Positions 9,538 to 28,177 of a DNA stretch of 39,611 bases are shown here, piece after piece. Source of the DNA: an uncultured Planctomycetia bacterium. Its GTDB lineage: Bacteria; Omnitrophota; Gorgyraeia; Duberdicusellales; 4484-171. The notes beneath the pieces were generated by a model that was given only the letters and a program-made list of their open reading frames with translations, searched no databases and was not told the DNA's origin. Where the stretch lies: contig CAZHVO010000003.1 of assembly GCA_964536195.1 (NCBI GenBank), forward strand, positions 1,797 to 41,407. Direction: 5' to 3'. The position numbers were made by a program, and so were the translations under genes. Numbering within the stretch: the first letter of the stretch is position 1; each line of letters starts with the position of its first letter.

Positions 9538-10038
9538 ATGGTAAAAATGAAAAAGGTTCTTTTCTCTTTTTTCTTGGTTTTTTTGGCTTTTTTTATTTCT
9601 TCAGCAGCGGCTCAAGAAAATATCACCATAACCACCTTTTATCCGTCTCCTTTTGGGGTATACAGAAACTTGGAGACACAGACCATAAGAATATTGAATA
9701 GTAATGAGGAGGTCTCTATAGGGCTTGATGGCAATAATCCGGCCATAGAACTTAGAGATAGAGACGCTGGTGGTAGGACCCCTTATATAGACTTTTCAAA
9801 TGATGCAGTTAGTAATTTTGATATGAGAATTATATTGAACGGCAACAATGAACTGAGGGTTCAGGGAGGCAATCTAAGAGTGCTCGGCAACGTTGTGGCG
9901 AATAATTTGCCCGGTTGTCAAAGACGCACTTTTACGGCAGCCACCGGCGTACAACAATGTCCAGTCGGATTTGCGGTTTCTCTAGCTCCGCTCGCGCCCA
10001 TATCGACCTCAGGCAGTTTTTTATGTTGTGCTTATTAA
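9538..10038 (+). CDS. Secreted hypothetical protein, possibly fibre/adhesin-like
   Basis: Signal peptide ending AAA|Q; ITITTFYPSPFGVY; PYIDF..FDMRII segment; Cys-containing C-terminus ending FLCCAY. Confidence 0.6.
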   Translation: MVKMKKVLFSFFLVFLAFFISSAAAQENITITTFYPSPFGVYRNLETQTIRILNSNEEVSIGLDGNNPAIELRDRDAGGRTPYIDFSNDAVSNFDMRIILNGNNELRVQGGNLRVLGNVVANNLPGCQRRTFTAATGVQQCPVGFAVSLAPLAPISTSGSFLCCAY

Positions 10039-10058: not shown

Positions 10059-10472
10059 ATGAAGTTTCAGTTAAGCTGTAAAATTTATCCTTTTGAGGCT
10101 GTTCTAAATGCTTCCTATACTTTTATTGACCGTGTCTATATTTTTTTGGATAGTAATTTAAAGGAGGACAAGGTAATAGTTTCTTTTAAAGAAAAACAAA
10201 AACTTTCTCCCAAAAAATTGGAAGATTTGCGCGGAGAATTTATGAATGAGCTATTGCATTGCGTTTTGAGATACAAGATAAGTAAAAATAACAAAAAGAT
10301 TAGAGAATATATTGTCGGACGCGCTTTATATTCCGCTCTGCCTTTACCAATGGAAGAAGCTCTGCTGGGAGAGGATTCGGGGAAACTAGATTATCAGGAA
10401 GACCCTTTAGGTATTACTATACCTTGGGAAGAGAAGCATGGAAAGAAAAAAAATGCTAAATCTAAAGTTTAA
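10059..10472 (+). CDS. hxsD: His-Xaa-Ser system protein HxsD
   Basis: KIYPFEAVLNASYTFIDRVYIFL and EFMNELLHCVLRYKI..IREYIVGRAL; just upstream of HxsB; SD aggag. Confidence 0.8.
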   Translation: MKFQLSCKIYPFEAVLNASYTFIDRVYIFLDSNLKEDKVIVSFKEKQKLSPKKLEDLRGEFMNELLHCVLRYKISKNNKKIREYIVGRALYSALPLPMEEALLGEDSGKLDYQEDPLGITIPWEEKHGKKKNAKSKV

Positions 10473-10665
10473 TACTAAAATATATAAAATGAAGGCAATT
10501 CAAGAAGCCATTTTGGCCTATTCTGATAGGGCGAAATTTTCTCTATCTAATGATAAAAGGTATATACAGGTGCGGATAAATAAAGTAGACTCGGAAATTA
10601 AGGCTATTATTGGTGATGAGTTTGCCAATTATGTATTGGGGTTGACTAAAAAATGGATACAATAA
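10438..10665 (+). CDS. Second, short HxsD-like protein (alternative start 10453)
   Basis: KIYKMKAIQEAILAY...DEFANYVLGL parallels KIY...EFMNELL of the upstream HxsD; overlaps both neighbours. Confidence 0.7.
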   Translation: MERKKMLNLKFNTKIYKMKAIQEAILAYSDRAKFSLSNDKRYIQVRINKVDSEIKAIIGDEFANYVLGLTKKWIQ

Positions 10666-12125
10666 TTGAGAATGTAGATAGGCAAAAGGTTGGTTTTTGC
10701 AGGTTTAAAAAACTGAACGATAAGTATTTGCTTACCAATGATGTTGGCGATTACTGTTTTTTAACTCCTGTGTATTTTAAGGCATTGTTTTTGGGTAAGC
10801 TTGAGCAGATAGAGAAAGATAATCAGCATAAGTATCAGGAACTTGTTGATAAGGGTTTTGTGCGTAGTCTATTAGATTTCGATAGGTTGATTGAGAAATA
10901 TTCTACAAAGAATATGGCTTTGAAGGAAGGGCCGGTTCTGCATATAATTGTAGTAACACTAAGATGCAATCATGCGTGTGTTTATTGTCAATCTAACGCC
11001 GGCGGAGTTGATAATAAAACGTTGGATATGGATATATCCGTAGCAAGGAAGGTTGTTGATAGAATTTTTGAATCTCCCGGATCAAACATTACTATTGAAT
11101 TTCAGGGGGGAGAGCCTATGCTTAACTTTAAAACTGTGAAATTTATTGTTGAGTATGCACGAGAAAAAAATAAAGAGAAAAAGAAAAGTTTAAAGATAAC
11201 AATGGTTTCTAACTTAACTTGTGCTACCGAAAAGATAATAGCATTTTTAATAAAAAATGATGTTGATATTTGCACCTCTATTGACGGCCCGGAATATGTT
11301 CATAATAAAAACCGGATTATTTTCGATAAAAACAAGAATAGCTATAAAAGAACAGTAAAATGGCTGAAGAAAATCGAAGATAAGCTTGGTGCGAAAAAGT
11401 TTAAACATAGACCTAATGCTTTGTTGACGTTGACAAAACGTTCTTTTACTTATTCTAAGGAGATTGTTGACGGATATGTAAAGATTGGTTTGGACGGTAT
11501 CCATTTGAGACCAATGAATACATTTAGTTTGTCTAAAAAAGTGCCTCGCACTTTAAGCTATACCTGGGCTGATTTTATTGCTTTTTATAGAAAGACAGTT
11601 GATTATATTATTGAACTAAATCTTAAAAAGAGATTTTTCTATGAGAGGACGGCAGTGGTATTTTTGATTAAGATTCTTACTGATAACGACCCGAATTACT
11701 TGGATATTCGTTCTCCCTGCGGGGCCGGTATTGGACAGCTGGCCTACGATTATAATGGAAATGTATATACCTGTGATGAAGGTAGAATGTTGAGCAGGAT
11801 TGGAGATGAGTCATTTAAACTAGGCAATGTAATGCATAATACTTACTCGGAGATGATTAATCACCCCACAGTTAAGGCAATGTGTGTTGCTTCTTGTTTA
11901 GATAATCTTCCCGGATGCAGCCAGTGTGTATATAAGCCGTATTGCGGTGTTTGTCCCTTACTGAATTATGCAGAACAAGGCAGTATTTTTATCCAGCAGC
12001 CTAAAAACGAGAAGTGCTTGATGCAAAACGCAATTTTAGATTATCTTTTTGAAAAATTAGAAAATAAAAGTTGCAAGGATGTATTTAAAAAATGGGTGGA
12101 CCATTTTATGTCTGGAAATCAATAG
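10653..12125 (+). CDS. hxsB: His-Xaa-Ser system radical SAM/SPASM maturase HxsB
   Basis: YLLTNDVG, LHIIVVTLRCNHACVYC, EFQGGEP, DIRSPCGAGIGQLAYDYNGNVYTCDEGRM, CSQCVYKPYCGVCP. Confidence 0.9.
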   Translation: MDTIIENVDRQKVGFCRFKKLNDKYLLTNDVGDYCFLTPVYFKALFLGKLEQIEKDNQHKYQELVDKGFVRSLLDFDRLIEKYSTKNMALKEGPVLHIIVVTLRCNHACVYCQSNAGGVDNKTLDMDISVARKVVDRIFESPGSNITIEFQGGEPMLNFKTVKFIVEYAREKNKEKKKSLKITMVSNLTCATEKIIAFLIKNDVDICTSIDGPEYVHNKNRIIFDKNKNSYKRTVKWLKKIEDKLGAKKFKHRPNALLTLTKRSFTYSKEIVDGYVKIGLDGIHLRPMNTFSLSKKVPRTLSYTWADFIAFYRKTVDYIIELNLKKRFFYERTAVVFLIKILTDNDPNYLDIRSPCGAGIGQLAYDYNGNVYTCDEGRMLSRIGDESFKLGNVMHNTYSEMINHPTVKAMCVASCLDNLPGCSQCVYKPYCGVCPLLNYAEQGSIFIQQPKNEKCLMQNAILDYLFEKLENKSCKDVFKKWVDHFMSGNQ

Positions 12126-12139
12126 GTAAGGAGGAGATT

Positions 12140-12844
12140 ATGTGTTTGAAAAAATTGATCCTTTTGGTAGCGATCGTTTGTATTGGTATGTTTTATTCAA
12201 ATATTATTTTTGCCGAAAGTTTAGAAGATTTAACAACTAATTTTAATATTGATACGATTGAAAAAGATGTTTTTCAAAGATATTCTAAAGCAGAAGGGTT
12301 GTTAGGTGCATATTTAATATGTACAGCAGCAGTGAGAGGTGACCAGACAGTGTGTGATGACCTAAATTCGGATGAAGCCCGGTTTTGTAGTAAGCAATTT
12401 AGCTCGATGCATAATTTTTATAGAGAGTTAGTTACAACAGGAACAGTTACTTCAAAAGCTATAGAAAGTTGTATGCAAACTGAAAACGGCGTAACATCCC
12501 AAGATTGTCGGGATTTGGCAGAGGCATTCATTTCTAAGGATGCGTCTATATGTGAAGTATCAGAATGTAGTGCGATAATAAAAAGAGACGTTGGGTCTTG
12601 TAAGGAAGATAAAGGATGTCGGGATAGGGTTTATTATATAAAAGCAGTTGAAAAGAATAATGCCAAAAGTTGTGATAAGATAAAAGATGAATCTCTTAGA
12701 ATGCTTTGTATGGGAAGTATTACCCTAGATGAGAAGATATGTAAACAATGTAGTGGTTTTAAAAAATTTATTGAGCGGTATCATGAAGACCTAATAAAAA
12801 TGGAGGTGGGCGATGAAGAAGAAAATCAGGCTACCCAAGATTAG
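12140..12844 (+). CDS. Secreted Cys-rich repeat protein
   Basis: Start at ATG 12140 after SD aggagg; signal peptide ending IIFA|E; 13 Cys in the mature part with five (D/N)xxxC units. Confidence 0.7.
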   Translation: MCLKKLILLVAIVCIGMFYSNIIFAESLEDLTTNFNIDTIEKDVFQRYSKAEGLLGAYLICTAAVRGDQTVCDDLNSDEARFCSKQFSSMHNFYRELVTTGTVTSKAIESCMQTENGVTSQDCRDLAEAFISKDASICEVSECSAIIKRDVGSCKEDKGCRDRVYYIKAVEKNNAKSCDKIKDESLRMLCMGSITLDEKICKQCSGFKKFIERYHEDLIKMEVGDEEENQATQD

Positions 12845-13109
12845 GATAGAAATAAAGGATTTCCTTTTAAGTGAAGAGGGGAAAATTACTAAAAAGAATA
12901 TTGCTAAGTTGGGGATGTCTTTAGCAGTTATGGCGATAATGTTTAAACCCCAGGCTGCTAGTGCAGCTCATTCTAGCCATGGTAACCACGGTAATGCTTT
13001 TTTTTCTGGCGATAGAGGTGGGCATACTTCAGGAACACCACATGCTTCGCATGGTTCACATGGCTCGCATGGTTCACATGGCTCGCATGGTTCGCATGGA
13101 CAATGGTAA
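12813..13109 (+). CDS. hxsA: His-Xaa-Ser repeat RiPP precursor (HxsA-type)
   Basis: SD ggaggtgg; 51-aa leader, then AHSSHGNHGNAFFSGDRGGHTSGTPHAS(HGS)x5HGQW; lies among HxsD/HxsB/HxsC-like genes. Confidence 0.9.
   Translation: MKKKIRLPKIRIEIKDFLLSEEGKITKKNIAKLGMSLAVMAIMFKPQAASAAHSSHGNHGNAFFSGDRGGHTSGTPHASHGSHGSHGSHGSHGSHGQW
13041..13103 (+). repeat. 9-bp tandem repeat x7 encoding His-x-Ser triplets
   Basis: catgcttcg catggttca catggctcg catggttca catggctcg catggttcg catggacaa; the 18-mer catggttcacatggctcg occurs twice exactly. Confidence 0.95.
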
Positions 13110-13118: not shown

Positions 13119-14072
13119 ATGCAACAGCTGATAATTGTATTGACCCACCGCTGCAACCTCAGGTGTCGATATTGCCCCGTTTTGCATAATTCCGCTACAA
13201 TAAATTATAATACTGCTATAATAGCCATTGATTTATTTTTAAATGGGCAAGATAGAAAATATTTAATTAAATTTTCGGGCGGAGAGCCGTTGTTAGAATT
13301 TACTTTATTGAAGGATATCGTAATATTTGCCAGAAATAAGGGGCTAAAATTAAATAAGAGTGTTCAGTTTCAAATAACGACAAATGGTATCTTGCTTAAT
13401 GATGCGGTTATAAATTTTTTCAAAAAAAGTAAAGATATTGAATTAATAGTAAGCCTGGACGGCAGCAGAAATACTCAGCTGAAGAATAGAATATCGGTTG
13501 ATAAAAAATTAAATTCTTCTGACAGTATCATCTTTCAAAAGCAGAAAATTCTTTCGATCCCTCGCGTAATCATCAATATGGTAGTTGCGCCTAATGAGGT
13601 GAAGAAATTCTATCGTAATTTTCTTTATATTTTGAAACTGGATTTTTGCCGCTTTATTTTTTTACCGGCCTATTTCGTTTACTGGAATAAAGAAAAAATT
13701 AATAAATTAAAAAAGGAATTTTGTAGGATAGCGGAATTTATAAGTAAAAATAAAAATAGAATAAATATTTATGTTAAAAACTTAGATTTGATAAGCCCAG
13801 CGCCTCTTTTTAATAGTGGGTTAGTCATTGATTGTAATGGAGATGTGTTTAGTGACAATTTGGTTCTTTCCCAACGATTTGCTTATCTGCGTAGGCAGCT
13901 TAGGGTTGGAAACATTAAGGATTTCTCTTTTAAACCTTTCTTTTTTAGACAATCGATCGATATAAATCACTTAATTGACCGGGTTACTCCCAAGTCTATT
14001 CTAGGGTCAACTAGAACAGTTGATCGTGTCTTAACGGATTTTGTTAACCGCCTAAAAAATGAAACGAGCTGA
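13119..14072 (+). CDS. Radical SAM protein (group B here: no C-terminal Cys cluster)
   Basis: LTHRCNLRCRYC, FSGGEP, TTNG, SLDG; C-terminal NSGLVIDCNGDVF. Confidence 0.88.
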   Translation: MQQLIIVLTHRCNLRCRYCPVLHNSATINYNTAIIAIDLFLNGQDRKYLIKFSGGEPLLEFTLLKDIVIFARNKGLKLNKSVQFQITTNGILLNDAVINFFKKSKDIELIVSLDGSRNTQLKNRISVDKKLNSSDSIIFQKQKILSIPRVIINMVVAPNEVKKFYRNFLYILKLDFCRFIFLPAYFVYWNKEKINKLKKEFCRIAEFISKNKNRINIYVKNLDLISPAPLFNSGLVIDCNGDVFSDNLVLSQRFAYLRRQLRVGNIKDFSFKPFFFRQSIDINHLIDRVTPKSILGSTRTVDRVLTDFVNRLKNETS

Positions 14073-14949
14073 TATTAAAACCGGGTTTAATTGTAATAAT
14101 CATTGTCGGTTTTGTGTCCAGGGTAATAAGAGAGTTTTGTATGGCGATAAAAGCACGGTAGAAATAAAGAAAGCTTTACAGGAGGCAAGAAACGATTGCG
14201 ATAGTGTGGTATTTACCGGCGGAGAACCAACAGTCAGGAAAGATATTATTGATTTGGTAAGATATGCTAAGAGTTTAGAATTTGAGACTATTCAGATACA
14301 GAGTAACGGCCGGATGTTTTGCTATGAGAAATTCTGTACGGCAATAATTATTGCCGGAGCGAATGAATTTTCTCCGGCAATTCACGGTCATATCGCACAA
14401 CTCCATGACTTTTTGACTGCTTCAAAGGGTAGTTTTAAGCAGAGTATCACTGGAATTAAAAATTTAAAGAAACGGGGGCAAAAAGTAATCACTAACACTG
14501 TTATTACGAAATCAAATTATCGGCATTTACCGGAAATTGCGCGACTTCTATCTTATTTAAAAGTAGATCAGTATCAATTTGCCTTTGCTCATGCTTTAGG
14601 AACGGCTGGAGAAAATTTTGAATCAATCATTCCTCGAATGTCAATGATTATGCCTTATGTGAAAGAAGGCTTGGATATTGGAATCGTAGCCGGAAAAAAA
14701 GTTATGACCGAAGCAATTCCTTATTGCCTTATGCAGGGGTATGAAGAATACATTGCTGAAAAGATTATCCCTGATACAAAAATATACGATTATGATCGTA
14801 TAATAGATGATTTTACAGAAATACGTCGAAAAGAAGGCAAATTAAAGGGGCCGAAATGCAAACAATGTAAACATTTCCAATATTGCGAAGGCCCCTGGCG
14901 GGAATATCCCGAAAAATTTGGCTGGACAGAATTTGTGCCAAAAATGTGA
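14059..14949 (+). CDS. Radical SAM protein, HxsC-like (group A here)
   Basis: CNNHCRFC, FTGGEPT, IPYC, CKQCKHFQYCEG. Confidence 0.88.
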   Translation: MKRADIKTGFNCNNHCRFCVQGNKRVLYGDKSTVEIKKALQEARNDCDSVVFTGGEPTVRKDIIDLVRYAKSLEFETIQIQSNGRMFCYEKFCTAIIIAGANEFSPAIHGHIAQLHDFLTASKGSFKQSITGIKNLKKRGQKVITNTVITKSNYRHLPEIARLLSYLKVDQYQFAFAHALGTAGENFESIIPRMSMIMPYVKEGLDIGIVAGKKVMTEAIPYCLMQGYEEYIAEKIIPDTKIYDYDRIIDDFTEIRRKEGKLKGPKCKQCKHFQYCEGPWREYPEKFGWTEFVPKM

Positions 14950-15036
14950 GATCAAATATTGGATCTCTGTAATCAGAGGACATTTGTAAAAGCTTACCTA
15001 AGAGAGGGATAATTTTTAGGAGCGAGGGCAGCTATA

Positions 15037-15957
15037 TTGGGAAGCGGCGAATTCCTTCATGTCTCTATTAACAATCGATGCAATAATAATTGCATATTTT
15101 GCATGGAAACTGATGCTAAAAATTTGATTCCTCCCTCTTCTAAGAGGCTATCCATTCTCTTCCAGAAAGCAATAAAAAAAACAGATAGTGTTTTATTTAC
15201 TGGACCTGAACCCACAGTAAATAAATCTTTGGTAAATTATATAAAGATGGCCAAAAAAATAGGATACAAAGATATACGTTTAGTAACCAATGGCCGTCTT
15301 CTTTGTCACTTTGATTATGCTCGTGAATTACTAAAATCTGGTTTAACAGAATTCAACATTGCTCTTCATGGGAGTAAAAGATCGATTCATGATGCCATGA
15401 CAAGAACACCTCATAGCTTTGATCAAACAATCAAAGGATGCTATAATCTATCGAAGTTGAAGTCAGATTATCTATTTCGATGGTATATTAGTTTTACACT
15501 TACCAAAGTTAACTCACCCGATTTGTACAACTTTCTTAAATTAACAGTCTTCTTAAAAGGAGTTAATGGGAGTATTATTAATACGGTGATTCCTCAAGGA
15601 GGAGGATTGATCTTTTTTAAGAATTTAATTTCAAACTATACTGATCTAGCTGATTCTTTTAAATCAGCAATTGAGCGGTTAAAGAAGAATCCTAAAGTTC
15701 AATCAAAAGACCGATTCAATATCAGCATACTTGGTTTACCAGTCTGTTTGTTGGTAGGCTATGAGAAATATGCCAGCGAGTACGAGAGCATCTTAATGAA
15801 TTCCGGAAACAAAAAAATCAATATTAGAAAAAGAGAACGTTCCAAAAAATTAAAAAGAGAAAAATGTAAAGAGTGCAAATATGATTCGTTTTGTGAAGGA
15901 GTTTGGTGGCGATATATAAAAATGAAAGGTTGGCGGGAATTTCACCCGATTAAATAA
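15037..15957 (+). CDS. Radical SAM protein, HxsC-like (group A)
   Basis: CNNNCIFC, variant FTGPEPT, LPVC, CKECKYDSFCEG; TTG start uncertain. Confidence 0.85.
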   Translation: MGSGEFLHVSINNRCNNNCIFCMETDAKNLIPPSSKRLSILFQKAIKKTDSVLFTGPEPTVNKSLVNYIKMAKKIGYKDIRLVTNGRLLCHFDYARELLKSGLTEFNIALHGSKRSIHDAMTRTPHSFDQTIKGCYNLSKLKSDYLFRWYISFTLTKVNSPDLYNFLKLTVFLKGVNGSIINTVIPQGGGLIFFKNLISNYTDLADSFKSAIERLKKNPKVQSKDRFNISILGLPVCLLVGYEKYASEYESILMNSGNKKINIRKRERSKKLKREKCKECKYDSFCEGVWWRYIKMKGWREFHPIK

Positions 15958-15989
15958 TGTGTTAAAAATTTTATCCTAACTGAATAAAA

Positions 15990-18800
15990 ATGAATGAAAA
16001 TACATCAAAGACTAGATATCGTGATAAAATCGTTGGTCGAACCGATAGCTTTCCGAATGCAATTTGTTTGGTAAATAAATTCAAAAAGACAATTAAAAGA
16101 CCAGAATTGTTAAGGAAAGTTAAAACAATTTTTTCAACTTCAAGAAAGAATAGCATTGTATGCACGCTAGCTGATTATCGAGCCCTTGTAGATGTATATC
16201 AGCGGAGTCGAAATCGAAAAGCCGAAAAAAGCAGTTCTAAATCTAAAATTCTTCTTTTCAGGAATATTTTTAATTCTTCGGGTAAAGAGAAAAACCAAAG
16301 TTTTAGCTCAGCAACTCTTTATTTGGCTTCTGGCCTAAAGAAGGCAGGTTTTAGAGTCGTTTTTAGCAATTCCAAGATTTCTTTGGAGAACGACGATTTT
16401 ATTACGCAAAAAGAGGAGTTGGAGAAAATTTTGAGAGCGAATTCCGACATAAACATTATCGGTATTTCTCTCTGTGAAGACTTTTTCGAAAAGGCTAAAG
16501 AATTAATTAAATTTCTAAGAAAAAGAACGAAGGCTTTTATCGCAGTGGGTGGTGTAATGCCAACACTAACTCCTGAACATGTTTTTGTTCATTTACCGGA
16601 TGCGAATTTTTTGGTCAGGGGCGCTGGTGAAGAAGTTCTTCCCAAAATGGCTAAAATTTTAGGAGGAAAGAATATTGATTCTTCTTTCGACAAAGGAGAG
16701 GTAGAAAATCTTTTAAAACTTAAAGGCGTTCTTTTTCAGAATAAATTTATTTTTATTTCTGCAGCTTTAGATAAAGTTAATAATATTACAGATTACGACT
16801 GTTCTTTTCTTGATTTCAGTTTCCTGAAGGCGGAAAATATTACTAACGGTCTAATTCTTTTTACTTCCCGAGGATGTTTTAATAATTGTTTTTTTTGCAC
16901 TTCGCCGGGAAAGGGTGAATATGTAGCTAAAAGTTTTAAGAATTTAAAAACAATTATTAAGAACTATAAGCAGAGGCTCAACGAAATTTTTAAGAAAGAT
17001 ATCCCACCTTCTGCTTTACGGATTTCTTTCTATGATGATGATTTTCTCGCCGATACTCAAAGAGCTAAATCTTTTTTCTTGTATCTGAAAAAACAACCAT
17101 TCCGCATAAATTTTTTCCAAACCGGCATAAACTCTTTTTTTGAAAAAGTTGGAAAGAAGTACTCCGGCAAGTTAGACCGGGGACTTCTTAAGAGTTTGGC
17201 TCCGGAAATTTTTGACCCCTCAAAAGAAACAAATATTTATATAGGACTTGAAAATATTTCCGATAGAGAACTTACAAGATTAGGCAAGGGGTACAGCCAT
17301 AAAAAAGCCGAAAAAATAATAAATACATTAGCTCTGAAGAGAATTAAAATCACTTGTCACTTTATAGCTTCAAATCAATTAACTTCTTTAGACAATATTG
17401 TAGAAAATTTATTCAAGTTTTCTGTTTTCCAAGCTCTTTACGGACAATATTTTAAAGTTTTAACTCCAATTATTCCTTACCTTGTGTCTCTTTATCCATC
17501 GGCAAGTTATAAAATTTCTTTAATAAATAAACGAGAAAAATTTATTAATATTCGTCGTAATCTATTAGTGGAAAATTATCCAGAGTATGATTATTCTCTA
17601 GTAGAGAATGATATTCCTATGAGCAAGGCTGTACAAGCCTTGGTTCCTTTACTTTATGATTCATTTTTGGCTAATAAGAATTATTTTAAAATTTTAGATG
17701 AGATGTTATCTAATCTCCTGCTTTTACAAGAAAAAATTCCTTCGGCACAAAAAGAGATATCAAATGTGGTTAGGAAATATAATAATTATTACCTGATGAT
17801 TGATAAAAAGGTATCTCGTATGGTAACCCCCGGCCGGAATAACCTGCAATTAATGATTACTAAGCGATGCCACCTTCGCTGTAAATATTGTCCGATTGTT
17901 AAAAAAAATGAAGACATGAGCGAAGATGTGCTGTATCAAGCAATTAATTTTCTTTTTACCGCTTCCGGAGACACTCTTCGCTTGGATTTTACTGGTGGAG
18001 AGCCGTTGTTAAGATTTGATTTGGTAAAAAAAGGAGTTGAGTACGCTAAAAAATTAGCCCGAAAGAAAAACAAAAATATTTCTTTTTACCTGGTAACAAA
18101 TCTTATTGCGATGGAGGATGATATTGCTGATTTTTTGGCCAGAGAAAATTTTTTCCTGGAATTGTCAGTAGACGGGGAAGAAAAATTCCATAATCTTTAT
18201 AAAATCGGAAGAGACCATAAAATAAACGCTTATCAATCAACAATAACTAAATTGCAGAAAGTATTTTCAAGAAAAATAAATAATTATGCGGTGATGGTAG
18301 TAAATCCAGCCACTGTTAGATATCTGTGGCGTAATTTTTACCATATTATGAAATTAGGATTTAGAAGAATCGGTGTTAATTATGCCCTTTGCTCAACATG
18401 GGAAGCAGATGCCCGAAGGGAATTTTTCCGACAATTTGATTTAATTAAGGAAGCTTTACACCTCCATATTAAAAAAGGGATAGTCAGCTTAACTAATCTA
18501 GAGTCGAGAAACGAACCGGCTATTCTAAATAGTGAAATAATGGTTGACGTTGACGGGAGAGTGCGACTATTGACCGATTACCTTTTTGAAAAAGAAATTA
18601 AAAAGAAACCGCCCTTTTTAGGAGAAATAGGAAACTTTAAGAATATAAATGAAATTTTTTTGACGCAGTTTCGAACTTTATCCCGGTTGTTTCGGTATCA
18701 GGCAACTCCTAAAATAAAAAAGGTTATTCTTAATAATATCGAAATGGGAAATTTGACAAAAATCTATTTTGAAGAATGGAAAAGCAAATTAAAGCAATAA
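15990..18800 (+). CDS. Cobalamin-binding radical SAM domain fused to a group B radical SAM domain
   Basis: LYLASGLKKAG, VGGVMPT, VRGAGEE, TSRGCFNNCFFC, FYDDDF; second domain ITKRCHLRCKYC, FTGGEP, EPAILNSEIMVDVDG. Confidence 0.85.
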   Translation: MNENTSKTRYRDKIVGRTDSFPNAICLVNKFKKTIKRPELLRKVKTIFSTSRKNSIVCTLADYRALVDVYQRSRNRKAEKSSSKSKILLFRNIFNSSGKEKNQSFSSATLYLASGLKKAGFRVVFSNSKISLENDDFITQKEELEKILRANSDINIIGISLCEDFFEKAKELIKFLRKRTKAFIAVGGVMPTLTPEHVFVHLPDANFLVRGAGEEVLPKMAKILGGKNIDSSFDKGEVENLLKLKGVLFQNKFIFISAALDKVNNITDYDCSFLDFSFLKAENITNGLILFTSRGCFNNCFFCTSPGKGEYVAKSFKNLKTIIKNYKQRLNEIFKKDIPPSALRISFYDDDFLADTQRAKSFFLYLKKQPFRINFFQTGINSFFEKVGKKYSGKLDRGLLKSLAPEIFDPSKETNIYIGLENISDRELTRLGKGYSHKKAEKIINTLALKRIKITCHFIASNQLTSLDNIVENLFKFSVFQALYGQYFKVLTPIIPYLVSLYPSASYKISLINKREKFINIRRNLLVENYPEYDYSLVENDIPMSKAVQALVPLLYDSFLANKNYFKILDEMLSNLLLLQEKIPSAQKEISNVVRKYNNYYLMIDKKVSRMVTPGRNNLQLMITKRCHLRCKYCPIVKKNEDMSEDVLYQAINFLFTASGDTLRLDFTGGEPLLRFDLVKKGVEYAKKLARKKNKNISFYLVTNLIAMEDDIADFLARENFFLELSVDGEEKFHNLYKIGRDHKINAYQSTITKLQKVFSRKINNYAVMVVNPATVRYLWRNFYHIMKLGFRRIGVNYALCSTWEADARREFFRQFDLIKEALHLHIKKGIVSLTNLESRNEPAILNSEIMVDVDGRVRLLTDYLFEKEIKKKPPFLGEIGNFKNINEIFLTQFRTLSRLFRYQATPKIKKVILNNIEMGNLTKIYFEEWKSKLKQ

Positions 18801-20011
18801 TTAATTCTTTTATCGATGATTTCGATCAGCAAAAGCTGGTTTTGCTGGAGCATATACTTTTTTCTCTATTGTTGGAGAGAGAAGCGTATTTACTTCAAAG
18901 AAAAAAAAGCACATATACAAAGAAAATAGCAGGAATCCTATCTCGTTATGCTAATTACCGGTATCTAATTTACGAAACAATGTCAAAGAAGAAAAAAGTT
19001 GATAAAAACTTTCTTATGAGAAATATTTATATCTCCCCTCAGCGCCTTATCGTTCTTCTGACTCATAATTGTCAATTACGCTGCGAGTATTGTCGGGTAA
19101 GCAAATTCTCATCTTTCATGAATAAAGAAACTTTATTTAAAGCGATCGATTTACTGTTTACTTCCAATTCACGAGAGCTTCAACTTCAGTTTTTTGGCGG
19201 TGAGCCTCTTCTAAAATTTGATTTGATCAAAAAAGCAGTTATTTATGGAGAAAAAGCTGCTAAACGGCTGGAAAAAGATCTAGTTTTTATCCTTACGACC
19301 AACGGTATTGAGCTGACAAAAGAAAAGGTAGATTTTCTAAAAAAGCACCGGTTTATTATCGAGTATAGCATAGATGGTGAGGTTGAGGCTCAGCTTAAGA
19401 CCAGGATGGCCTCTAACAATAAAAATTATTATTCACATATGATAGATAATTTTGAGTATCTTAAACAGTCAGGCATACGCCACTATTCTATTAGCGTGGT
19501 CATGCCGCATACTGTTTCGCCAATGTTTAGAAACTTTAAGCATTTGGTAGATATTGGGTTTGAGAGTTTACAGATGAATTATTCTTTAGGGTTTTTCTGG
19601 CCCAAGAAGGAGGTAAAAACTCTTTTTCGACAAACAGAGCAAATTCTTAACTATGTTAAGAAACACAGGGATATTCAATTCATTAATTTAACTTCTGCGA
19701 GGAAAGAGCCGGTAGTCCTTAACGCTGAGCTGACGGTAGATTGTGATGGTGGGATATATATGGAATCGGGAATTTGCCTTGAGGAAGATTTTATTGAGAT
19801 GAAAAACAAATTTTTGGTAACCGATCTAGAGAAAGCGGTAAACGTCAATTTGTACGGTTCCACTCCTTTTCAAAATTTTTACCGCTTATCAGAAATTTAT
19901 GGCGCGGCAAACCCCAAATTTAGAGAAATTATTCTAAATAATATTTTCTTGGGAAAAAAATACAACTTATTTTTAAAAAATGAAAAAAGTAAAATTTTCC
20001 ATTCCTTATAA
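18776..20011 (+). CDS. Radical SAM protein (group B) with an N-terminal helical extension
   Basis: LTHNCQLRCEYC, FFGGEP, TTNG, SIDG, EPVVLNAELTVDCDG. Confidence 0.88.
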   Translation: MEKQIKAIINSFIDDFDQQKLVLLEHILFSLLLEREAYLLQRKKSTYTKKIAGILSRYANYRYLIYETMSKKKKVDKNFLMRNIYISPQRLIVLLTHNCQLRCEYCRVSKFSSFMNKETLFKAIDLLFTSNSRELQLQFFGGEPLLKFDLIKKAVIYGEKAAKRLEKDLVFILTTNGIELTKEKVDFLKKHRFIIEYSIDGEVEAQLKTRMASNNKNYYSHMIDNFEYLKQSGIRHYSISVVMPHTVSPMFRNFKHLVDIGFESLQMNYSLGFFWPKKEVKTLFRQTEQILNYVKKHRDIQFINLTSARKEPVVLNAELTVDCDGGIYMESGICLEEDFIEMKNKFLVTDLEKAVNVNLYGSTPFQNFYRLSEIYGAANPKFREIILNNIFLGKKYNLFLKNEKSKIFHSL

Positions 20012-20972
20012 TGGAGATATTGAGTTAATTAAATGGGCGATTAAAAATAAGCAGGTTGAGGAAGTTTATTTTGCTGGTCCGCAAGGGTATGATTTTTCTG
20101 ATCCATACGAGAACGAAAAAAAACATAGCCTTTACGATGTCAGTGCTTTAATGAGGCTTTGTAACAAAAATAAAGTAGATACGAATTTATTAATTAATAA
20201 GAATGTAATGTTTTTTGAGTCTTTGGCGAGGATAAAGAAAAGTATTAATATTTTGCAAAAAGCAGGGAGTTTAGATTATATTACTGTAGCTGATGTTTTT
20301 CTTGCTAAGTGGCTAAAAGAAAATTTTCCTTTAATTAAATTGCAATCGTCTATTTATATGGGGATAAACAATTTTTTGAAGGTAAAAGAAGGTATAAAAG
20401 CAGGCATATCCAAATTTTGTTTAGATCCTTCAATAAACCGTAATGGACAGGAGTTAAGAAAAATTGCCGGTTTAAAAAAGCATTATCCTTTTTTGCGGAT
20501 CAAACTGTTAGGATTGATTATGTGCTATCAGAATTGTTTTTATTCTTTAAGACATAGCGCTTTGCCGATTTTTAGTAGACAAATCAAGAGTAAGGGGGGG
20601 TACTTGGGAGAGCAGTTTGATTGTTATAAATGCCATTATTTGCCATCAGGAATAGTAGATGAGATTAAAAGGCCCTACGTTCGTCCAGAAGATGTTAGCT
20701 ATTACGAAAAAGAAAAGTTGACCGATTCAATAAAGTTGGCTTATCGTAATGAGCCCAGTGCTTCATTGAAGCTAAAAATGATAAGTTACTTTAATCGTAG
20801 TTATAATGGTAACTTATTTGATTTAATGGATTCTATTAATTATGATAATTTATTTTGTGATAATAAAAGGATACCTAAAGATTTCGCTAAAAAGGTTGTG
20901 GAGTGTAATAAAGATTGTTTTTCGTGTGGTTATTGTGAGTTTATCGCTAAAAGATACCTTAAAGCCAGGTGA
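19980..20972 (+). CDS. U32 'peptidase' family Fe-S protein
   Basis: FSIPYN..EEVYFA, ITVAD, LQSS, LDPSINR, CYQNCFY..H, VRPED..YY, IKLAYR; C-terminal CNKDCFSCGYC. Confidence 0.75.
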   Translation: MKKVKFSIPYNGDIELIKWAIKNKQVEEVYFAGPQGYDFSDPYENEKKHSLYDVSALMRLCNKNKVDTNLLINKNVMFFESLARIKKSINILQKAGSLDYITVADVFLAKWLKENFPLIKLQSSIYMGINNFLKVKEGIKAGISKFCLDPSINRNGQELRKIAGLKKHYPFLRIKLLGLIMCYQNCFYSLRHSALPIFSRQIKSKGGYLGEQFDCYKCHYLPSGIVDEIKRPYVRPEDVSYYEKEKLTDSIKLAYRNEPSASLKLKMISYFNRSYNGNLFDLMDSINYDNLFCDNKRIPKDFAKKVVECNKDCFSCGYCEFIAKRYLKAR

Positions 20973-23170
20973 AAATGTCTAAAATTGTTTTGATAAATCC
21001 TGTAAATCTTGACCCCCCGCCTAATTATTTTGGGCCGCCATATGGGTTAAGTCTTATAGCGGCTAATCTTTTAAAATGCAACAAGAAAGTTACCGCTTAT
21101 GACTTTGACTTTCAACCGATGCCGGTAATGCTGCAGGCAATCCCGGAAATACTAAAAAAAGATAAACCTGATTATATAGGTATTGCAACACAAAGTTGTG
21201 CTAGAGGTTCAGTATATCAGATCATTAGGGCAATAAAAAAAAATGATAACAAGGTAAAGATAATATTAGGTGGGCCATTTGCGTCATTGAAATTTGAGTT
21301 GCTTTTGCGCAATTTTGCTGTTGATTTTGTAATAATCGGCGATGGAGAGATAACTTTAAATCAGCTTATTGATTGTATTGACAATAAAGATAACTTGAGT
21401 GATGTGGATGGTATAGCATATATAGGAAGTGGTAAGCTTTGTGTGACTCAGGAAAGAGAAAAAATAAGCAATTTAGATCAATTACTTTACCCTGCTTTTC
21501 ATCTTTTTAAAGACTTTAATGAGAGAATGGCCTTTCCTAAAAATCTTGGCCCTTTGCCAAATTTTTTATTAGGTAAACGGTGTACAACCTTAAAAGATGC
21601 ATTGTTAATGTTGTCTTCCAGAGGGTGTATTTATAGCTGTAACTTTTGTCCAATGAGCAAGATAACTAAGCATAAAATAAGATTTCATAGCCCGGAGTAT
21701 TTTGTAAATATGGTTGAGTATTTTCATGAAAAGTATAGTATTAGTGATTTTGTTTTTGGCGATAATTTCTTTACATTAAGAAAAGAAAGAGTTCTGAAAA
21801 TTTGTGAGTTGATATTACAGAAAAAGCTAAAAATAAAATGGGGTTGTATGACTCGTTCTGATTATGTTGACGAGGAGATGTTGTCGATAATGGCGAAAGC
21901 TGGCTGTTTTGAAATATCTTATGGAGTTGAAAGTGGATCAGTTTTGATTCAGAAAAAAATAGGTAAAAATCTTGATCTAGCTAAAACCAAAGAATCATTT
22001 TTAATGACGGAAAAGTTTGGCATTAGAAGTGTGCTTATGCTTATGATTGGGAATAGTGGAGAAAATGTAAATACGATAAAGCAGACTATGAAATTTGTCC
22101 GCGGAATGAGGCCGGATAGTATTTTGGTTAAAAAAGTAAAGGTGTATCCCGGTACAAAAATTCATGATATTTTTGAACAAAAAGGTTTGATAGATGACAA
22201 TTATTATTTAGGCGATGACTACCATCCGCCTACCTTTACTTTGGCGCATAGCCAAAATAAACTTAATGATTTTTCAGATATGATTAAGTCGAGGAGGGTA
22301 TATATAGACTCTACTAACGTTTCAAACAACAATTCATTGTTTAGTGATTTAGATAGCGGTTTAAGAGATAAAGATCTTGATACCATTAAAAAAGAACTTG
22401 CATTAGCTTTAACTAGGGCAGAACTGGTGGTACTGACCGGAGGCGAGTTTTTTCTGCGTAAAGATTTTTTTGATATTCTGCGATTTGCTATCGACTTAAA
22501 TCTTCATCATCTTTATATAAAAAGCAACGCAAGAATATTTTTATACAATAAGTTTTTAGAAAAATTGATGAATATAGAATGTCTGGAAAAAATTTTAGTT
22601 CCTTTTTACGGCGAAGAGGCTTATCACGATCAAGTTTGCCGGGTTAAAGGAGCTTTTTCCCAAACTGTAAAAGGCATTAAGAATTTAAAATTAAGATTTC
22701 CTTACATCAAAGTCCAGGCACAAATACCAATTTTACTTAATAATTTTGAAAGAATTCAGGATTTAACAGTAATGCTTTCAAATATGGGGGTTGATGAGTT
22801 TCACTATCTATTTGGCCGTAGTTGCGATGGGATTACGAAAGTAAGTCCGAATAATTTACCGCTTATCAGCAAAGCTATGAAGAGTATTGCAACGGCAAGT
22901 AAGTGGTTGGTTAAAAAAAATAAAGAAATATCTTTTGAGGGTGTGCCTTTATGTATAGCCGGAAAGTACAAATACTATTGTTGCGATTTCACGCAGCCCT
23001 TTGACGAGGTAATAACATTTGATAATAAAGTCGTGGGTTGTATTGAATTGAGAAAAAAATATAAGAAAAAGTATTTTTTTTGTAGAAAATGCAAAGAGGG
23101 TGATTTGTGTGAAGGTGTTTGGAGAAATTATGCGAAAATAGCAAAATCTGATGAGCTTAAACCATACTGA
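20969..23170 (+). CDS. B12-dependent radical SAM (class B methyltransferase-like) fused to a degenerate HxsC-like domain
   Basis: IVLINP, PPYGL, ILGGPFAS, IGDGE, SSRGCIYSCNFC, YGVESGS; C-domain SNNNSLFS, LTGGE, VPLC, CRKCKEGDLCEG. Confidence 0.87.
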   Translation: MKMSKIVLINPVNLDPPPNYFGPPYGLSLIAANLLKCNKKVTAYDFDFQPMPVMLQAIPEILKKDKPDYIGIATQSCARGSVYQIIRAIKKNDNKVKIILGGPFASLKFELLLRNFAVDFVIIGDGEITLNQLIDCIDNKDNLSDVDGIAYIGSGKLCVTQEREKISNLDQLLYPAFHLFKDFNERMAFPKNLGPLPNFLLGKRCTTLKDALLMLSSRGCIYSCNFCPMSKITKHKIRFHSPEYFVNMVEYFHEKYSISDFVFGDNFFTLRKERVLKICELILQKKLKIKWGCMTRSDYVDEEMLSIMAKAGCFEISYGVESGSVLIQKKIGKNLDLAKTKESFLMTEKFGIRSVLMLMIGNSGENVNTIKQTMKFVRGMRPDSILVKKVKVYPGTKIHDIFEQKGLIDDNYYLGDDYHPPTFTLAHSQNKLNDFSDMIKSRRVYIDSTNVSNNNSLFSDLDSGLRDKDLDTIKKELALALTRAELVVLTGGEFFLRKDFFDILRFAIDLNLHHLYIKSNARIFLYNKFLEKLMNIECLEKILVPFYGEEAYHDQVCRVKGAFSQTVKGIKNLKLRFPYIKVQAQIPILLNNFERIQDLTVMLSNMGVDEFHYLFGRSCDGITKVSPNNLPLISKAMKSIATASKWLVKKNKEISFEGVPLCIAGKYKYYCCDFTQPFDEVITFDNKVVGCIELRKKYKKKYFFCRKCKEGDLCEGVWRNYAKIAKSDELKPY

Positions 23171-27032: not shown

Positions 27033-28125
27033 TACCCAGCAATTATTAAAAAGATTAGCAGAGTTGGGCATCAAGGATCCTTTAAGTAGTAATACTTTGG
27101 GAGAAGTGTACTTAATGTTATCTCTGCGTTGCAATTTACGATGTAAGGTATGTTCTTGGTGGGGGGCAAAAGGCCCTTGCAGGGATAGAGGGTTTATGGA
27201 TAAATATGCTTCATCGTTGACCTTGAAAGAGCTTAAACCTTTCATGGAAGATATTATAAGCTTTTCTCCGAAAACAATTACTTTTTCTGGAGGAGAACCG
27301 CTTATGTATAAAAAATGGTATGTTTTGGCCGATTATTTTAAGGCAAGGGGAGTCAAAGTGTCTTTAACCACAAACGGTGTATTTTTTCTAAATAATTTCG
27401 ATAAATTGGTTAATGTTGTAGACGAGATAAACCTTTCATTAGGCGGCCCCCCTTCTATACTGAATCTTATCCGAGACAATCGCCCCAGCCATTTTAATAA
27501 GATACTGCAGGGGTTGAAAAAAATAAGTGATTTTAAGCGAAACAACCGCAATAAGCCTTTGTTAGGGATACTTTATACTATTTCAGATATAAGCTATGGC
27601 TATATGTCGGAACTTATAGAATTTTTACAAGATAACCGTATTCCAATTGACCGGTATTGTTTTCAACATTTGATGTTTATCGGCCCGGATACATTTAAGG
27701 CTCAGCAAAGAATATTTAAAAATAAGTTCGGGATTACATCTTTAGATTTGTGGCAGGGATATACTTATCTCCCCAAGAAAATAGATTTTAAAAAATTCAG
27801 AGATGAGATAAAAAAAGTAAAAAAAATGGCAAATGTAAGATTCAGCCCTGATTTTCGTCTTCACGAAATAGAAGACTATTATAAATGTAATAGAGGGGCA
27901 TTACATTATGCCGATTACTGTACCGCTCCTTGGCATCAGATAGATATGATGCCTAACGGAGATGTCTATACCTGTCATGATTATTTTATCGGTAATATAA
28001 AAAATTCGTCATTTAAGGATATATGGAACGGACAAAAAGCAAAGAATTTAAGAAAATATCTTTTGAATAAATTGTTTCCCGGGTGTAAGGGGTGTTTTTA
28101 TCATTATTGCGATAGGGTAGATTAG
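27013..28125 (+). CDS. Radical SAM protein with SPASM/twitch domain
   Basis: CNLRCKVC, FSGGEP, CTAPW..MPNGDVYTC..IGNI..FKDIWNG..CKGC. Confidence 0.88.
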   Translation: MARKSVNTQQLLKRLAELGIKDPLSSNTLGEVYLMLSLRCNLRCKVCSWWGAKGPCRDRGFMDKYASSLTLKELKPFMEDIISFSPKTITFSGGEPLMYKKWYVLADYFKARGVKVSLTTNGVFFLNNFDKLVNVVDEINLSLGGPPSILNLIRDNRPSHFNKILQGLKKISDFKRNNRNKPLLGILYTISDISYGYMSELIEFLQDNRIPIDRYCFQHLMFIGPDTFKAQQRIFKNKFGITSLDLWQGYTYLPKKIDFKKFRDEIKKVKKMANVRFSPDFRLHEIEDYYKCNRGALHYADYCTAPWHQIDMMPNGDVYTCHDYFIGNIKNSSFKDIWNGQKAKNLRKYLLNKLFPGCKGCFYHYCDRVD

Positions 28126-28148
28126 CTTAAAGAAGGTAGGGAAAGTGT

Positions 28149-28177
28149 TTGTTGATTCTGAGGTTTCGTGGTATATT
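28149..28177 (+). promoter_or_regulatory. Possible internal promoter for the second half of the cluster
   Basis: TTGTTG (28149-28154), 17 bp, TATATT (28172-28177) preceded by TG; strong SD aaggaggt before 28203. Confidence 0.4.

Follow-up and report, generated by a model that had tools for sequence, protein, structure and literature searches.

Introduction

The His-Xaa-Ser (Hxs) systems were predicted from genome data in 2011 (cf. Haft and Basu 2011, via PMC9062424 and PMC13128918) and have been placed in an enzyme network map (PMC9062424). The only experimental Hxs work that we located concerns the canonical four-gene system, HxsD-HxsB-HxsC-HxsA (PMC13128918 and its preprint), which is reported to act in Gammaproteobacteria as an antiphage barrier to DNA entry. 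According to that report, HxsB, HxsC, and HxsD are each required in E. coli for a non-canonical N-terminal cleavage of HxsA, HxsA acquires a +8.0 Da (+C/-4H type) change on one HxS-containing motif, HxsC binds HxsD, mature HxsA is periplasmic, and the radical chemistry is unsolved (PMC13128918). Here we analyze a 39,611-nucleotide stretch of contig CAZHVO010000003.1 from an uncultured Omnitrophota bacterium (hereafter, the window), in which the gene for a 98-residue His-Xaa-Ser repeat precursor, hxsA4 (12813..13109, + strand), is followed by a long array of radical S-adenosylmethionine (rSAM) enzyme genes. Judged from family scores and gene content, what this gene encodes is a genuine precursor of the HxsA4 family, set in an rSAM operon of unusual size. 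We propose that this precursor is probably modified by rSAM enzymes, exported by means of a short uncharged stretch, and cut at a Lys-Xaa-Gly (K-x-G) site, at an A/S-x-A site, or at both.

How does this locus compare with the canonical system? Both have HxsB and HxsD proteins that score above the curated family cut-offs, a substrate with HxS repeats, and an N-terminal export-type segment, and in the canonical system N-terminal processing is linked to the maturases and leads to a periplasmic destination (PMC13128918). However, the window substrate is 98 rather than 214 residues long, and a peptidoglycan-binding domain was not found in it. It carries 11 triplets where the canonical substrate carries 5, and the core of its family is nearly without basic residues. 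The window has 19 rSAM motifs against 2, an approximately tenfold enzyme set, and adds an HxsD-like gene and a GxGD protease. The lineages differ as well, since the HxsA4 type is found in Omnitrophota and other uncultured groups and the canonical type is reported from Pseudomonadota (PMC13128918).

The peptide belongs to a family that NCBI has already modeled and named and that is known as annotation alone. Close relatives in Omnitrophota metagenome-assembled genomes (MAGs) already bear the name HxsA4, and our literature search found no paper on HxsA4, HxsC4, HxsA3, or HxsA2; in the Omnitrophota preprints that we located, radical SAM appears merely as a domain count. The window agrees with the NCBIfam HxsA4 set in that the HxsA4 (NF038313) and HxsD_rel (NF038315) models score above cut-off, and differs from it in that the HxsC4 partner (NF038332) stays under its cut-off.

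Two other kinds of system resemble parts of the locus. The first is the triceptides, among which HaaB acting on HAA, YhhB on HNR, and HtkB on HTK form His-containing three-residue cyclophanes (PMC11499958), so that a first-pass annotation of the window was right to treat such rSAM/SPASM chemistry on His as established. The window shares with triceptides the aromatic-X-X repeats, with His first and C-beta hydrogens at position 3, and what appears to be a leader-type precursor beside an rSAM/SPASM enzyme. In contrast, the window enzymes fall outside the curated cyclophane-synthase families, and its export-type segment has no counterpart described in the accessible portion of PMC11499958. The second is the prepilins and other class III signals cut by PilD, TadV/CpaA, or FlaK, in which a basic leader likewise runs to a Gly and a hydrophobic stretch follows; the window protease shares with A24 proteases both Asp positions and the GxGD..KL signature. 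Unlike prepilins, the window peptide has a highly conserved leader of 34 residues and a stretch of 10-11 residues, and pilus machinery was not found in the cluster. A literature search for work joining a prepilin peptidase, radical SAM, and a precursor peptide found no paper.

Results

The hxsA4 gene and its product

The hxsA4 gene is preceded by a Shine-Dalgarno-like GGAGG (12802..12806, + strand) 6 nucleotides 5' of its ATG. Its product scores 71.1 bits on the HxsA4 model, against a curated cut-off of 55 (E-value 1.1e-19), with residues 7-98 aligned to positions 2-93 of the 93 in the model. The HxsA3 model reaches 46.7 bits, under its cut-off of 65, and no match to the peptide was found for canonical HxsA (TIGR03979, at an E-value of 0.01 or less) or for any Pfam domain. 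A word-indexed protein search returned 421 relatives at an E-value of 0.01 or less. With its ribosome-binding site, family score, and relatives, the open reading frame (ORF) looks like a genuine gene. It lies inside a tightly packed operon, because the next gene starts 9 nucleotides past its stop. Elsewhere in the window, we found no further + strand H-x-x run and no second leader-like motif.

The precursor can be divided into a leader, a linking segment, and a core, all read from the + strand. The leader (residues 1-34, 12813..12914) has a basic N-terminus and a ..DFLLSEEGKI.KK.. motif and ends at K32-x-G34. Residues 35-52 (12915..12968) comprise an uncharged stretch (residues 35-44), the sequence K-P-Q, and an A/S-x-A site before the first His. 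The core (residues 53-98, 12969..13106) consists of 11 H-x-(S/N/Q) triplets, two spacers, and a C-terminal Trp. On the DNA, position 12966 begins the codon of Ala52, H53 is encoded from 12969, Trp98 ends at 13106, and the stop codon occupies 13107-13109. The triplets run HSS, HGN, HGN, then after a 9-residue spacer HTS, and after a 3-residue spacer HAS, five copies of HGS, and HGQ before the Trp. The tally of 8 HxS, 2 HxN, and 1 HxQ is as the first-pass annotation had given it for 12966-13109. The core contains neither Cys nor Lys. Among 200,000 shuffles of this 46-residue core, 6 contained an in-register run of at least seven H-x-x triplets, and none contained 11 H-x-[SNQ] triplets.

The last triplet block is encoded by a tandem repeat in the DNA (13039..13099, + strand). 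Tandem Repeats Finder reports it with a period of 18 (3.4 copies, 93% matches, score 101) and, over 13041-13099, with a period of 9 (6.6 copies, 82% matches). The second and third copies of the 18-bp unit agree letter for letter, which makes an exact repeat of 36 bp, so a 9-bp repeat with an exact 18-bp duplication, as first claimed, is indeed what this block contains.

Two further observations concern this stretch of DNA. An antisense ORF (12968-13156, - strand, 62 residues) likewise shows H-x-x runs in translation, because the repeat is near-palindromic and rich in CATGG; it is without support as a gene, and we set it aside since homology backs the + frame. The Ser codon used most often in the core is TCG (4 of 10), and each of the 11 His codons is either CAT or CAC. 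Genes for tRNA-Ser(CGA) (6926-7017, - strand) and tRNA-His(GTG) (39062-39135, + strand) flank the region, a codon fit that is probably coincidence.

Conserved sequence and variable repeats in the HxsA4 family

The 120 listed relatives, out of the 421, are 80-153 residues long. Those that carry a source name are called HxsA4 or hypothetical protein and come mostly from Candidatus Omnitrophota, the exceptions among those named being one Deltaproteobacteria MAG and one entry labeled 'bacterium'. We took family pattern counts over 121 proteins and conservation from an alignment of 50 HxsA4-type relatives (alignment A1). All 50 match NF038313 at an E-value of 0.001 or less, and just one touches TIGR03979 (E-value 1.1e-5). 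A tblastn search of the peptide against phage and plasmid collections gave no match.

The relatives share one plan. In the N-terminal half, a basic N-terminus and the ..DFLLSEEGKI.KK.. motif are followed by a short uncharged stretch and a small-x-small site; in the C-terminal half, an HxN-x-FF...RGG-HxS motif is joined by a variable H-x-S array and an aromatic end. Within the leader, P8 and E22 are invariant in the alignment, and F17, E21, G23, K27, K32, and G34 are conserved in at least 90% of sequences. In the core the same level is reached by H59, G69, H71, and S73, which belong to the consensus HxNxFFxxxRGGHxS (in the window H59 ... F-F ... R-G-G-H71-x-S73, 12987..13031, + strand). The last HxN, the spacer, and the HTS thus form one conserved non-repeat motif, and only the arrays on either side of it vary in number. 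The three blocks of triplets described in the first-pass annotation are correct as a layout, but not as three repeat arrays.

Counted per protein, the triplets number between 5 and 24 in 119 of the 121 (median 9); the remaining two scored 0 because the script set their core after a C-terminal hydrophobic tail. The expectation that repeat number would vary among relatives is thereby borne out. Over 1,209 triplets, position 3 is Ser in 907 (75%), Asn in 138, Gln in 67, and Ala in 63, and position 2 is Gly in 496 (41%), Ser in 242 (20%), Ala in 170 (14%), and Thr in 113 (9%). A Trp stands among the final three residues in 101 of 121 proteins, and 50 of the 121 end in HGQW. The pooled family core is 21.8% Ser, 18.4% His, and 15.0% Gly, with 0.9% Lys and 1.1% Arg.

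Repeats in the DNA of other precursor genes were found among 14 loci (L001-L014) returned by one scan of species-representative genomes with a narrow alignment (A2). The gene in L013 has a 9-bp repeat in 6.8 copies at 100%, that in L007 a 45-bp repeat in 2.2 copies at 96%, that in L002 a 9-bp repeat in 2.6 copies at 100% that is interrupted by the contig end, and that in L008 a 9-bp repeat in 14.8 copies at 78%; the arrays in L012 have diverged. The duplications are independent, recent, and of differing unit length, and therefore support drift in repeat number via slippage or unequal exchange. The near-perfect repeats in L013 and L007 also uphold the earlier suggestion of slippage-type lability. 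At the level of the family, sequence comparison thus shows a triplet number that shifts easily, by slippage or unequal exchange within the repeat that encodes it.

An export-type N-terminus

In 110 of the 121 proteins, a [KR..]-x-[GA] pattern stands directly before the uncharged stretch. Among these 110, Gly holds position -1 in 106 and Ala in the other 4, Lys (92) or Arg (10) holds position -3 in 102, and one of Leu, Met, Ile, and Val stands at +1 in 95. In 88 of the 110 the uncharged stretch has 10-11 residues (10 in the window copy), a typical length for the core of a signal peptide and a short one for a membrane span. A small-x-small site occurs before the first His in 104 of the 110, most commonly as AxA (38 proteins), and in 87 of these 104 it is separated from the His by 0-1 residue. 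Most of the 11 proteins that fail the pattern still show, by eye, a K-x-G followed by a hydrophobic stretch.

We also compared residues 27-52 of the window peptide with the criteria for a Sec signal, namely a basic n-region, an h-region of 7-15 residues, and small residues at -3 and -1. Residues 27-52 show this pattern in conserved form, and the conserved extension of 26 residues that precedes it is atypical. The division of the N-terminus into a conserved basic leader, an uncharged stretch, and an A/S-x-A site appears to be new here, and we regard the whole as a putative export signal.

The gene cluster and its maturases

Three genes of Hxs families lie 5' of hxsA4, all on the + strand. They are hxsD (10059..10472, 137 residues; TIGR03976, 66.1 bits against 50; alignment A4), an hxsD-like gene (10438..10665, 75 residues; HxsD_rel, 73.3 bits against 41), and hxsB (10653..12125), which encodes an rSAM/SPASM maturase of 490 residues (TIGR03978, 502.3 bits against 370). 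HxsB carries the Pfam domains Radical_SAM and SPASM, a CX3CX2C motif at residue 105, and 17 Cys. With HxsA4, HxsB, and HxsD all above their cut-offs, the peptide is of the Hxs substrate type, as the first-pass annotation had it.

Beyond hxsA4 stretches an rSAM array of 13 ORFs (13119..35219, + strand), delimited by NCBIfam, Pfam, and motif counts. It contains 18 intact CX3CX2C motifs (19 with that of HxsB) and one degenerate domain. By class there are 6 HxsB/PapB-like domains with few Cys, 10 HxsC-like domains, 2 B12-binding rSAM domains, and 1 SPASM protein. The paralogues, pairwise 23-39% identical, are old. One pair, at 52%, joins the HxsC-like proteins of the second ORF of the array (14059-14949) and of its last rSAM ORF (34332-35219), and the counterpart of the former is the best-conserved rSAM protein in loci L001, L008, and L012 (52-60%).

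No array protein reaches the cut-off for HxsC (TIGR03977, 267.9 bits) or HxsC4 (500 bits). On HxsC the best score is 215.9, a sum over the two domains of 30146-32239, and the others score 42.8-136.1. On HxsC4 the same two-domain protein reaches 231.5, 15037-15957 reaches 197.5, and 14059-14949 reaches 168.5. By the curated cut-off, the HxsC-like proteins are on sequence evidence relatives of HxsC4 and not members of it.

What chemistry might these enzymes perform? The first-pass annotation had suggested a poly-cyclophane as one possibility. In such a triceptide-type product, each triplet would carry a ring from His C2 to the C-beta of residue 3 (-2 Da each), different paralogues would serve different triplet types, and the result would be a secreted peptide made on the ribosome and modified after translation (RiPP). 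The triplets do fit an aromatic-X-X pattern, with an invariant His at position 1, a variable position 2, and predominantly Ser (75%) at position 3. Links from His C2 to C-beta are established on HAA, HNR, and HTK (PMC11499958). HxsB is itself an rSAM/SPASM enzyme, and many divergent paralogues (23-39%) could mean a division of labor. However, the maturases score far under the cyclophane-synthase cut-offs. HxsB reaches 55.1 bits on YhhB (NF041707, cut-off 445) and 54.5 on GrrM/OscB (TIGR04261, 310), the array protein 13119-14072 reaches 42 on FxsB (TIGR04269, 370) and 35.9 on AmcB (NF041718, 425), and even the sum over three domains of 23151-27032 (1293 residues) comes to 146.7 on AmcB. The best non-Hxs matches of HxsB and its paralogues are to thioether-forming maturases and to the anaerobic sulfatase maturase (for HxsB, PapB 141.9, SCIFF maturase 122.2, and anaerobic sulfatase maturase 96.5 bits). 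Six of the seven HxsB-like domains have just 4-8 Cys, too few for a full SPASM domain. The studied Hxs system shows a single +8 Da (+C/-4H) change at one motif, not a loss of 2 Da per triplet, and the other peptides recovered there are unshifted (PMC13128918). Moreover, the fusion of leader and HxS array to domains of 330 residues in some relatives looks more like protein modification than a small natural product. We consider a poly-cyclophane unlikely, and of the annotation's overall interpretation we retain the Hxs substrate and the labile repeat, but not the cyclophane chemistry.

The array contains several unusual proteins. In 20969-23170, the C-terminal domain (residues ~436-733) is HxsC4-like, has lost CX3CX2C, and keeps 10 Cys; it follows an intact B12-binding rSAM domain in the same fused protein and may be a non-catalytic paralogue that holds the substrate. 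The array is interrupted by genes at 19980-20972, 28203-28697, and 28715-29134. The first encodes 330 residues with a weak Peptidase_U32 match (17.3 bits, cut-off 22.4) and a CX3CX2C at residue 309, near the C-terminus, and no counterpart was found in the 14 loci. The second encodes a stand-alone Lcl_C protein (PF07603, 111.6 bits) with a very basic N-terminus, and the third a protein of 139 residues that contains 12 Cys and matches zinc ribbons weakly; the related loci yielded no counterpart of either.

Three more genes, in the cluster or next to it, encode proteins with a signal-like N-terminus. Just 5' of hxsD is a gene for 166 residues of no family (9538..10038, + strand), residues 1-52 of which match a counterpart at the same position in L001. 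Between hxsB and hxsA4, and overlapping the hxsA4 start by 32 bp, is a gene for a Cys-rich protein of 250 residues with 15 Cys (12092..12844, + strand). Neither Pfam nor NCBIfam gave a family for it, the Atlas offered no helpful lead, and its counterpart at the same position in L001 is 28% identical. The third, a beta-propeller (PQQ/BamB-like) protein gene (36193..37293, + strand; Pfam PQQ_2, 174.9 bits), is the final gene before the tRNA genes, which begin at 37353. We regard the 9538-10038 and 36193-37293 genes, in or beside the cluster, as candidate members of the system.

The surroundings of the cluster are housekeeping genes: smpB, pyrE, an inositol monophosphatase gene, and tRNA genes. 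Rfam finds five tRNAs in the window and nothing else. G+C content is 0.32-0.36 in the cluster and 0.35-0.41 in the flanks, and for want of a sharp edge we set aside the idea that the cluster is a recently acquired island. A scan for promoters and terminators over 8500-13400 gave 19 hits, not above the 16.8 +/- 4.2 of shuffled sequence, and no + strand terminator. PADLOC 2.0, run on the window, returned only weak, generic viperin-like (pVip-type) matches to the rSAM domains.

These data bear on a second alternative, in which the cluster is a type-4 version of the HXS antiphage barrier and its matured peptide blocks phage DNA entry in the periplasm, as HxsA does in E. coli. The two systems have in common the HxsB and HxsD families and a similar gene order of D, B, and substrate with C-like enzymes. 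In the canonical system, phage DNA is kept from entering and every HxS repeat is required (PMC13128918); HxsA4 has export-type features, and a labile repeat number would suit an arms race. Much else does not fit: the canonical HxsA model goes unmatched at an E-value of 0.01 or less and its peptidoglycan-binding domain was not found, the flanks are housekeeping genes without a sharp G+C edge, the PADLOC matches are weak and generic, and 10-19 rSAM domains seem far beyond what a change at one site calls for. In addition, the published model relies on basic repeats, whereas the HxsA4 core is nearly free of Lys and Arg, and 99.7% of the HXS systems surveyed are reported from Pseudomonadota (PMC13128918). 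An antiphage barrier of this type is, in our judgment, decidedly unlikely.

The content of the cluster also speaks to the idea of a periplasmic metal-binding or metallophore-like peptide, an imidazole ladder made rigid by rSAM cross-links that would bind Ni, Zn, Cu, or Fe. His makes up 18.4% of the family core and recurs at every third residue, the peptide has export-type features, and in the lanthipeptide noursin a His cross-link is reported to be required for copper binding (PMC10206099). However, we recognized no metal transporter, regulator, or metal-dependent enzyme in the cluster, and 19 rSAM domains would be superfluous for a simple His-rich tail. We think a dedicated metal-binding role very unlikely.

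Longer precursors and related loci

A search with the leader only (a 52-residue query against 1.84 billion representatives) returned 65 representatives: 49 with at least 4 His triplets, 3 whose cores are Cys-rich, and 13 of other or short form; a GGW(x)C ending is found in 15 leader-only matches. Longer forms of the precursor number 37 at an E-value of 0.001 or less. In one kind of fusion, the leader and an HxS array of up to ~40 triplets lead through a C-P-F..V-W (Cys-Pro-Phe...Val-Trp) junction to a beta-rich domain of ~330 residues, as in L012 9995-11569 (524 residues), P0252, P0263, P0272, P0274, and P0321. Models of this domain are beta-sandwiches (predicted local distance difference test, pLDDT, 72.8), for which we found no Pfam family and no convincing fold match in the PDB (template-modeling, TM, score 0.26 or less). 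Five relatives (P0258-P0262) carry a precomputed Peptidase_S74 flag, and on rescanning P0258 the domain scores 55.7 bits and lies behind the array. Some longer forms have Pro/Thr-rich linkers. The HxS array is thus also the N-terminal module of larger exported proteins, as in canonical HxsA, which argues somewhat against the view of the product as a small natural product.

The same leader is found on cores rich in Cys, Asp, and Tyr (L006 9968-10618, P0298, P0307, P0309, and P0325). The core in L006 is encoded by a 48-bp DNA repeat in 3.1 copies (86%), and this precursor adjoins HxsD, HxsB, a TPR protein, and an A24-like gene.

Among the 14 loci, a homologue of HxsB lies within 2 kb 5' of the precursor-like ORF in 12; in L005 none was found within 4.4 kb, and L010 has no upstream DNA and a weak match only. 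A homologue of HxsD is found upstream in 10 of the 14, and 7 have an HxsD-like gene. In L001, L008, and L012 the precursor is followed by arrays of HxsC-like rSAM genes. In L001, an Omnitrophota contig, ~9 rSAM motifs occupy 9.5 kb, and the array of the window is approximately a doubled version of this. Three loci labeled Elusimicrobia (L009, L011, and L014) have a tandem pair of HxsB paralogues, each after an HxsD-like gene, 5' of the precursor-like ORF; by gene arrangement this is a different way of multiplying maturases.

HxsA4-like loci occur in MAGs labeled Omnitrophota, Elusimicrobia, Parcubacteria, Saccharibacteria, Microgenomates, Minisyncoccia, Woesearchaeota, and others, so that the hosts mostly bear the labels of ultra-small uncultured lineages. 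This spread suggests either lateral spread or shared ecology, with the qualification that many of the contigs are short and bin labels may be wrong.

A putative GxGD protease linked to the system

Directly after the rSAM array is a gene for a putative GxGD membrane protease resembling Peptidase A24 and prepilin peptidases (35225..36181, + strand), identified through the Atlas, its motifs, and its homologues. In the Atlas its feature score peaks at 0.95, against a cluster to which it may itself belong, and other Peptidase_A24 clusters give 0.87-0.88; a structure match there to an archaeal prepilin peptidase has a TM score of 0.83 by hit and 0.40 by query. At an E-value of 0.001 or less the protein has 131 homologues, some of which are named 'prepilin peptidase' by NCBI and 'Flp pilus assembly protein protease CpaA' by JGI, and 39 of the 120 listed carry the PF01478 flag. 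In an alignment of 36 sequences at 29-76% identity (alignment A3), D28 and G106-D107-x-K109-L110 are invariant. We take D28 and D107 to be the catalytic Asp residues and GxGD..KL to be the A24 signature. PF01478 is matched by 33 of the 36, with the window copy among the three that do not match; this set was chosen with a bias towards homologues already flagged with that family. The model of the protein is all-helical (pLDDT 84.1), and its predicted membrane topology is that of the model.

The linkage of this gene to the precursor recurs. In L001 it follows the rSAM array (65% identity), in L006 it lies ~7 kb 3' of the precursor, and in L013 it lies 5' of HxsD, so that in the window and these three loci the protease adjoins the system in three different gene orders. 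By locus tags, precursor and protease are 3 genes apart in one genome (PHP89_02615 and PHP89_02630) and 19 apart in another (ABIC68_01005 and ABIC68_01100), and 8 further pairs of precursor and protease homologues are on contigs of identical size. It is plausible from motifs and linkage that 35225-36181 encodes an A24-type protease that belongs with the HxsA4 system, and the protein is a candidate leader peptidase.

An A24-like protease next to the precursor raises a further alternative, that the peptide is a mini-pilin or fiber subunit. Here GxGD cleavage at G34 would expose a hydrophobic anchor, and the (Gly-Ser-His)n core, with its period of three, would form a cross-linked rod, trimeric and collagen-like or otherwise fibrous. 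Linkage to the protease and a Gly at -1 with Leu, Met, Ile, or Val at +1 in 95 of 110 proteins are in keeping with this. So is P0258, which pairs leader and array with Peptidase_S74 (four listed neighbors are flagged likewise), a domain that is presumably a trimerization chaperone. Weak matches of 5 of 50 family members to models of collagen-like adhesins, and the stand-alone Lcl_C gene inside the array (28203-28697), point the same way. On the other side, the uncharged stretch is just 10-11 residues, and pilin helices are longer than that; no gene for a pilus assembly ATPase or platform protein was found in the cluster. A strict Gly-X-Y register fails, because Gly occupies position 2 in only 41% of triplets, and the collagen-model matches may reflect low complexity. 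We regard a pilin-like fiber as extremely doubtful.

In the window copy, Gly at position 2 makes the array at 13041-13103 a (Gly-Ser-His)n sequence of collagen-like period. The collagen-like adhesin models weakly matched by 5 of the 50 relatives are those of SclB, a result that may point to a trimeric or fibrous form or may be a low-complexity artefact.

Discussion

Compared with the first-pass annotation, our analysis adds an export-type N-terminus, a GxGD protease in the cluster, and the recognition of HGN...HTS as a conserved non-repeat motif. How might these parts work together? In our proposal, the 98-residue peptide would be made from a translationally coupled operon, as its ORF, ribosome-binding site, and family suggest. 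The leader (approximately residues 7-31) could then act as a cytoplasmic handle for HxsB, HxsD, and the HxsD-like protein. We favor this role for the leader because it is conserved where the core is variable, and because HxsB, HxsC, and HxsD are genetically needed in the studied system. Before export, the core would be modified by HxsB together with the 6 HxsB-like, 10 HxsC-like, and 2 B12-type domains and the SPASM protein. The most likely targets would be the invariant His and the position-3 Ser of every triplet, along with the R-G-G-H-x-S motif that the family conserves.

The most likely chemistry would be abstraction of a hydrogen atom at the C-beta of residue 3, leading to a His-Ser link or to oxidation of Ser. 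Because the core is without Cys, the obvious analogue is attack at the Ser C-beta. C-methylation by the B12 enzymes is also possible, and the presence of two B12-type domains suggests methyl transfer as part of the pathway.

The uncharged stretch may then serve to pass the C-terminal core through the membrane. Judging from sequence patterns and from gene linkage, the leader would be cut at K-x-G by the GxGD protease of the cluster, on the cytoplasmic face; alternatively or additionally, signal peptidase I could release the core at A/S-x-A. A modified poly-imidazole peptide of ~46 residues would thereby come to act in the periplasm or on the cell surface. There it could serve as a barrier like the HXS antiphage effector, in metal binding, or in something else, and it may work in the envelope together with the three co-encoded proteins whose N-termini are signal-like (9538-10038, 12092-12844, and 36193-37293).

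Several points weigh against this proposal. Both putative cleavage sites are derived from pattern counts that we devised for this analysis. Classical bacterial type IV prepilins differ from the K-x-G site at -3 and +5; the site has a basic residue at -3 and is without Glu at +5. The HxsC-like proteins fall short of the HxsC and HxsC4 cut-offs. The window copy of the protease has no PF01478 match even at an E-value of 0.5 or less, and it matches nothing else in Pfam or NCBIfam. Its profile, searched against the sequences of the PDB, found nothing, and in a PDB fold search FlaK (3s0x) came first at a level that is not significant (E-value 0.82, TM scores 0.25 and 0.38). An A24-like gene is present in just 3 of the 14 loci, the other 11 being short sequences or ones that end inside the array, where absence cannot be judged. 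Genes for pilin- or pseudopilin-like proteins with an N-terminal methylation motif lie 5' of the cluster in both the window (5-598) and L001 (412-2031), and because the organism has such genes, the protease could instead serve pilins as an ordinary prepilin peptidase. Finally, the family core is poor in Lys and Arg, whereas the HxS repeats invoked for DNA binding in the canonical system are basic (PMC13128918).

A bolder version of the proposal can be drawn. The N-terminus would be a hybrid of a maturase leader and a prepilin-like class III signal, served by the GxGD protease of the operon, and the triplets would be stitched by up to 19 rSAM domains into a rigid poly-imidazole envelope rod. 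The length of the rod would be tuned by slippage, its hosts would be ultra-small and probably host-dependent bacteria, and it would act as a barrier or as a trap for metal or DNA. Such a hybrid N-terminus may not have been described for any RiPP-like substrate. We give this full picture only a slim chance of being right.

What does the locus mean for our understanding of Hxs systems? If none of these proposals holds, it is one more annotated HxsA4 cluster. So far, however, only the simplest, gammaproteobacterial form of Hxs has been studied, and the window stands at the opposite end: a single substrate carrying 11 target-like triplets, 19 rSAM motifs, and a membrane protease of its own, in a lineage without a cultured model. 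If the enzymes act on the triplets, a short substrate without Cys would be a convenient mass spectrometry handle for Hxs chemistry, because each repeat is a separate read-out. If confirmed, the joining of a prepilin-type protease to an rSAM-modified peptide would be a new route of leader removal and export.

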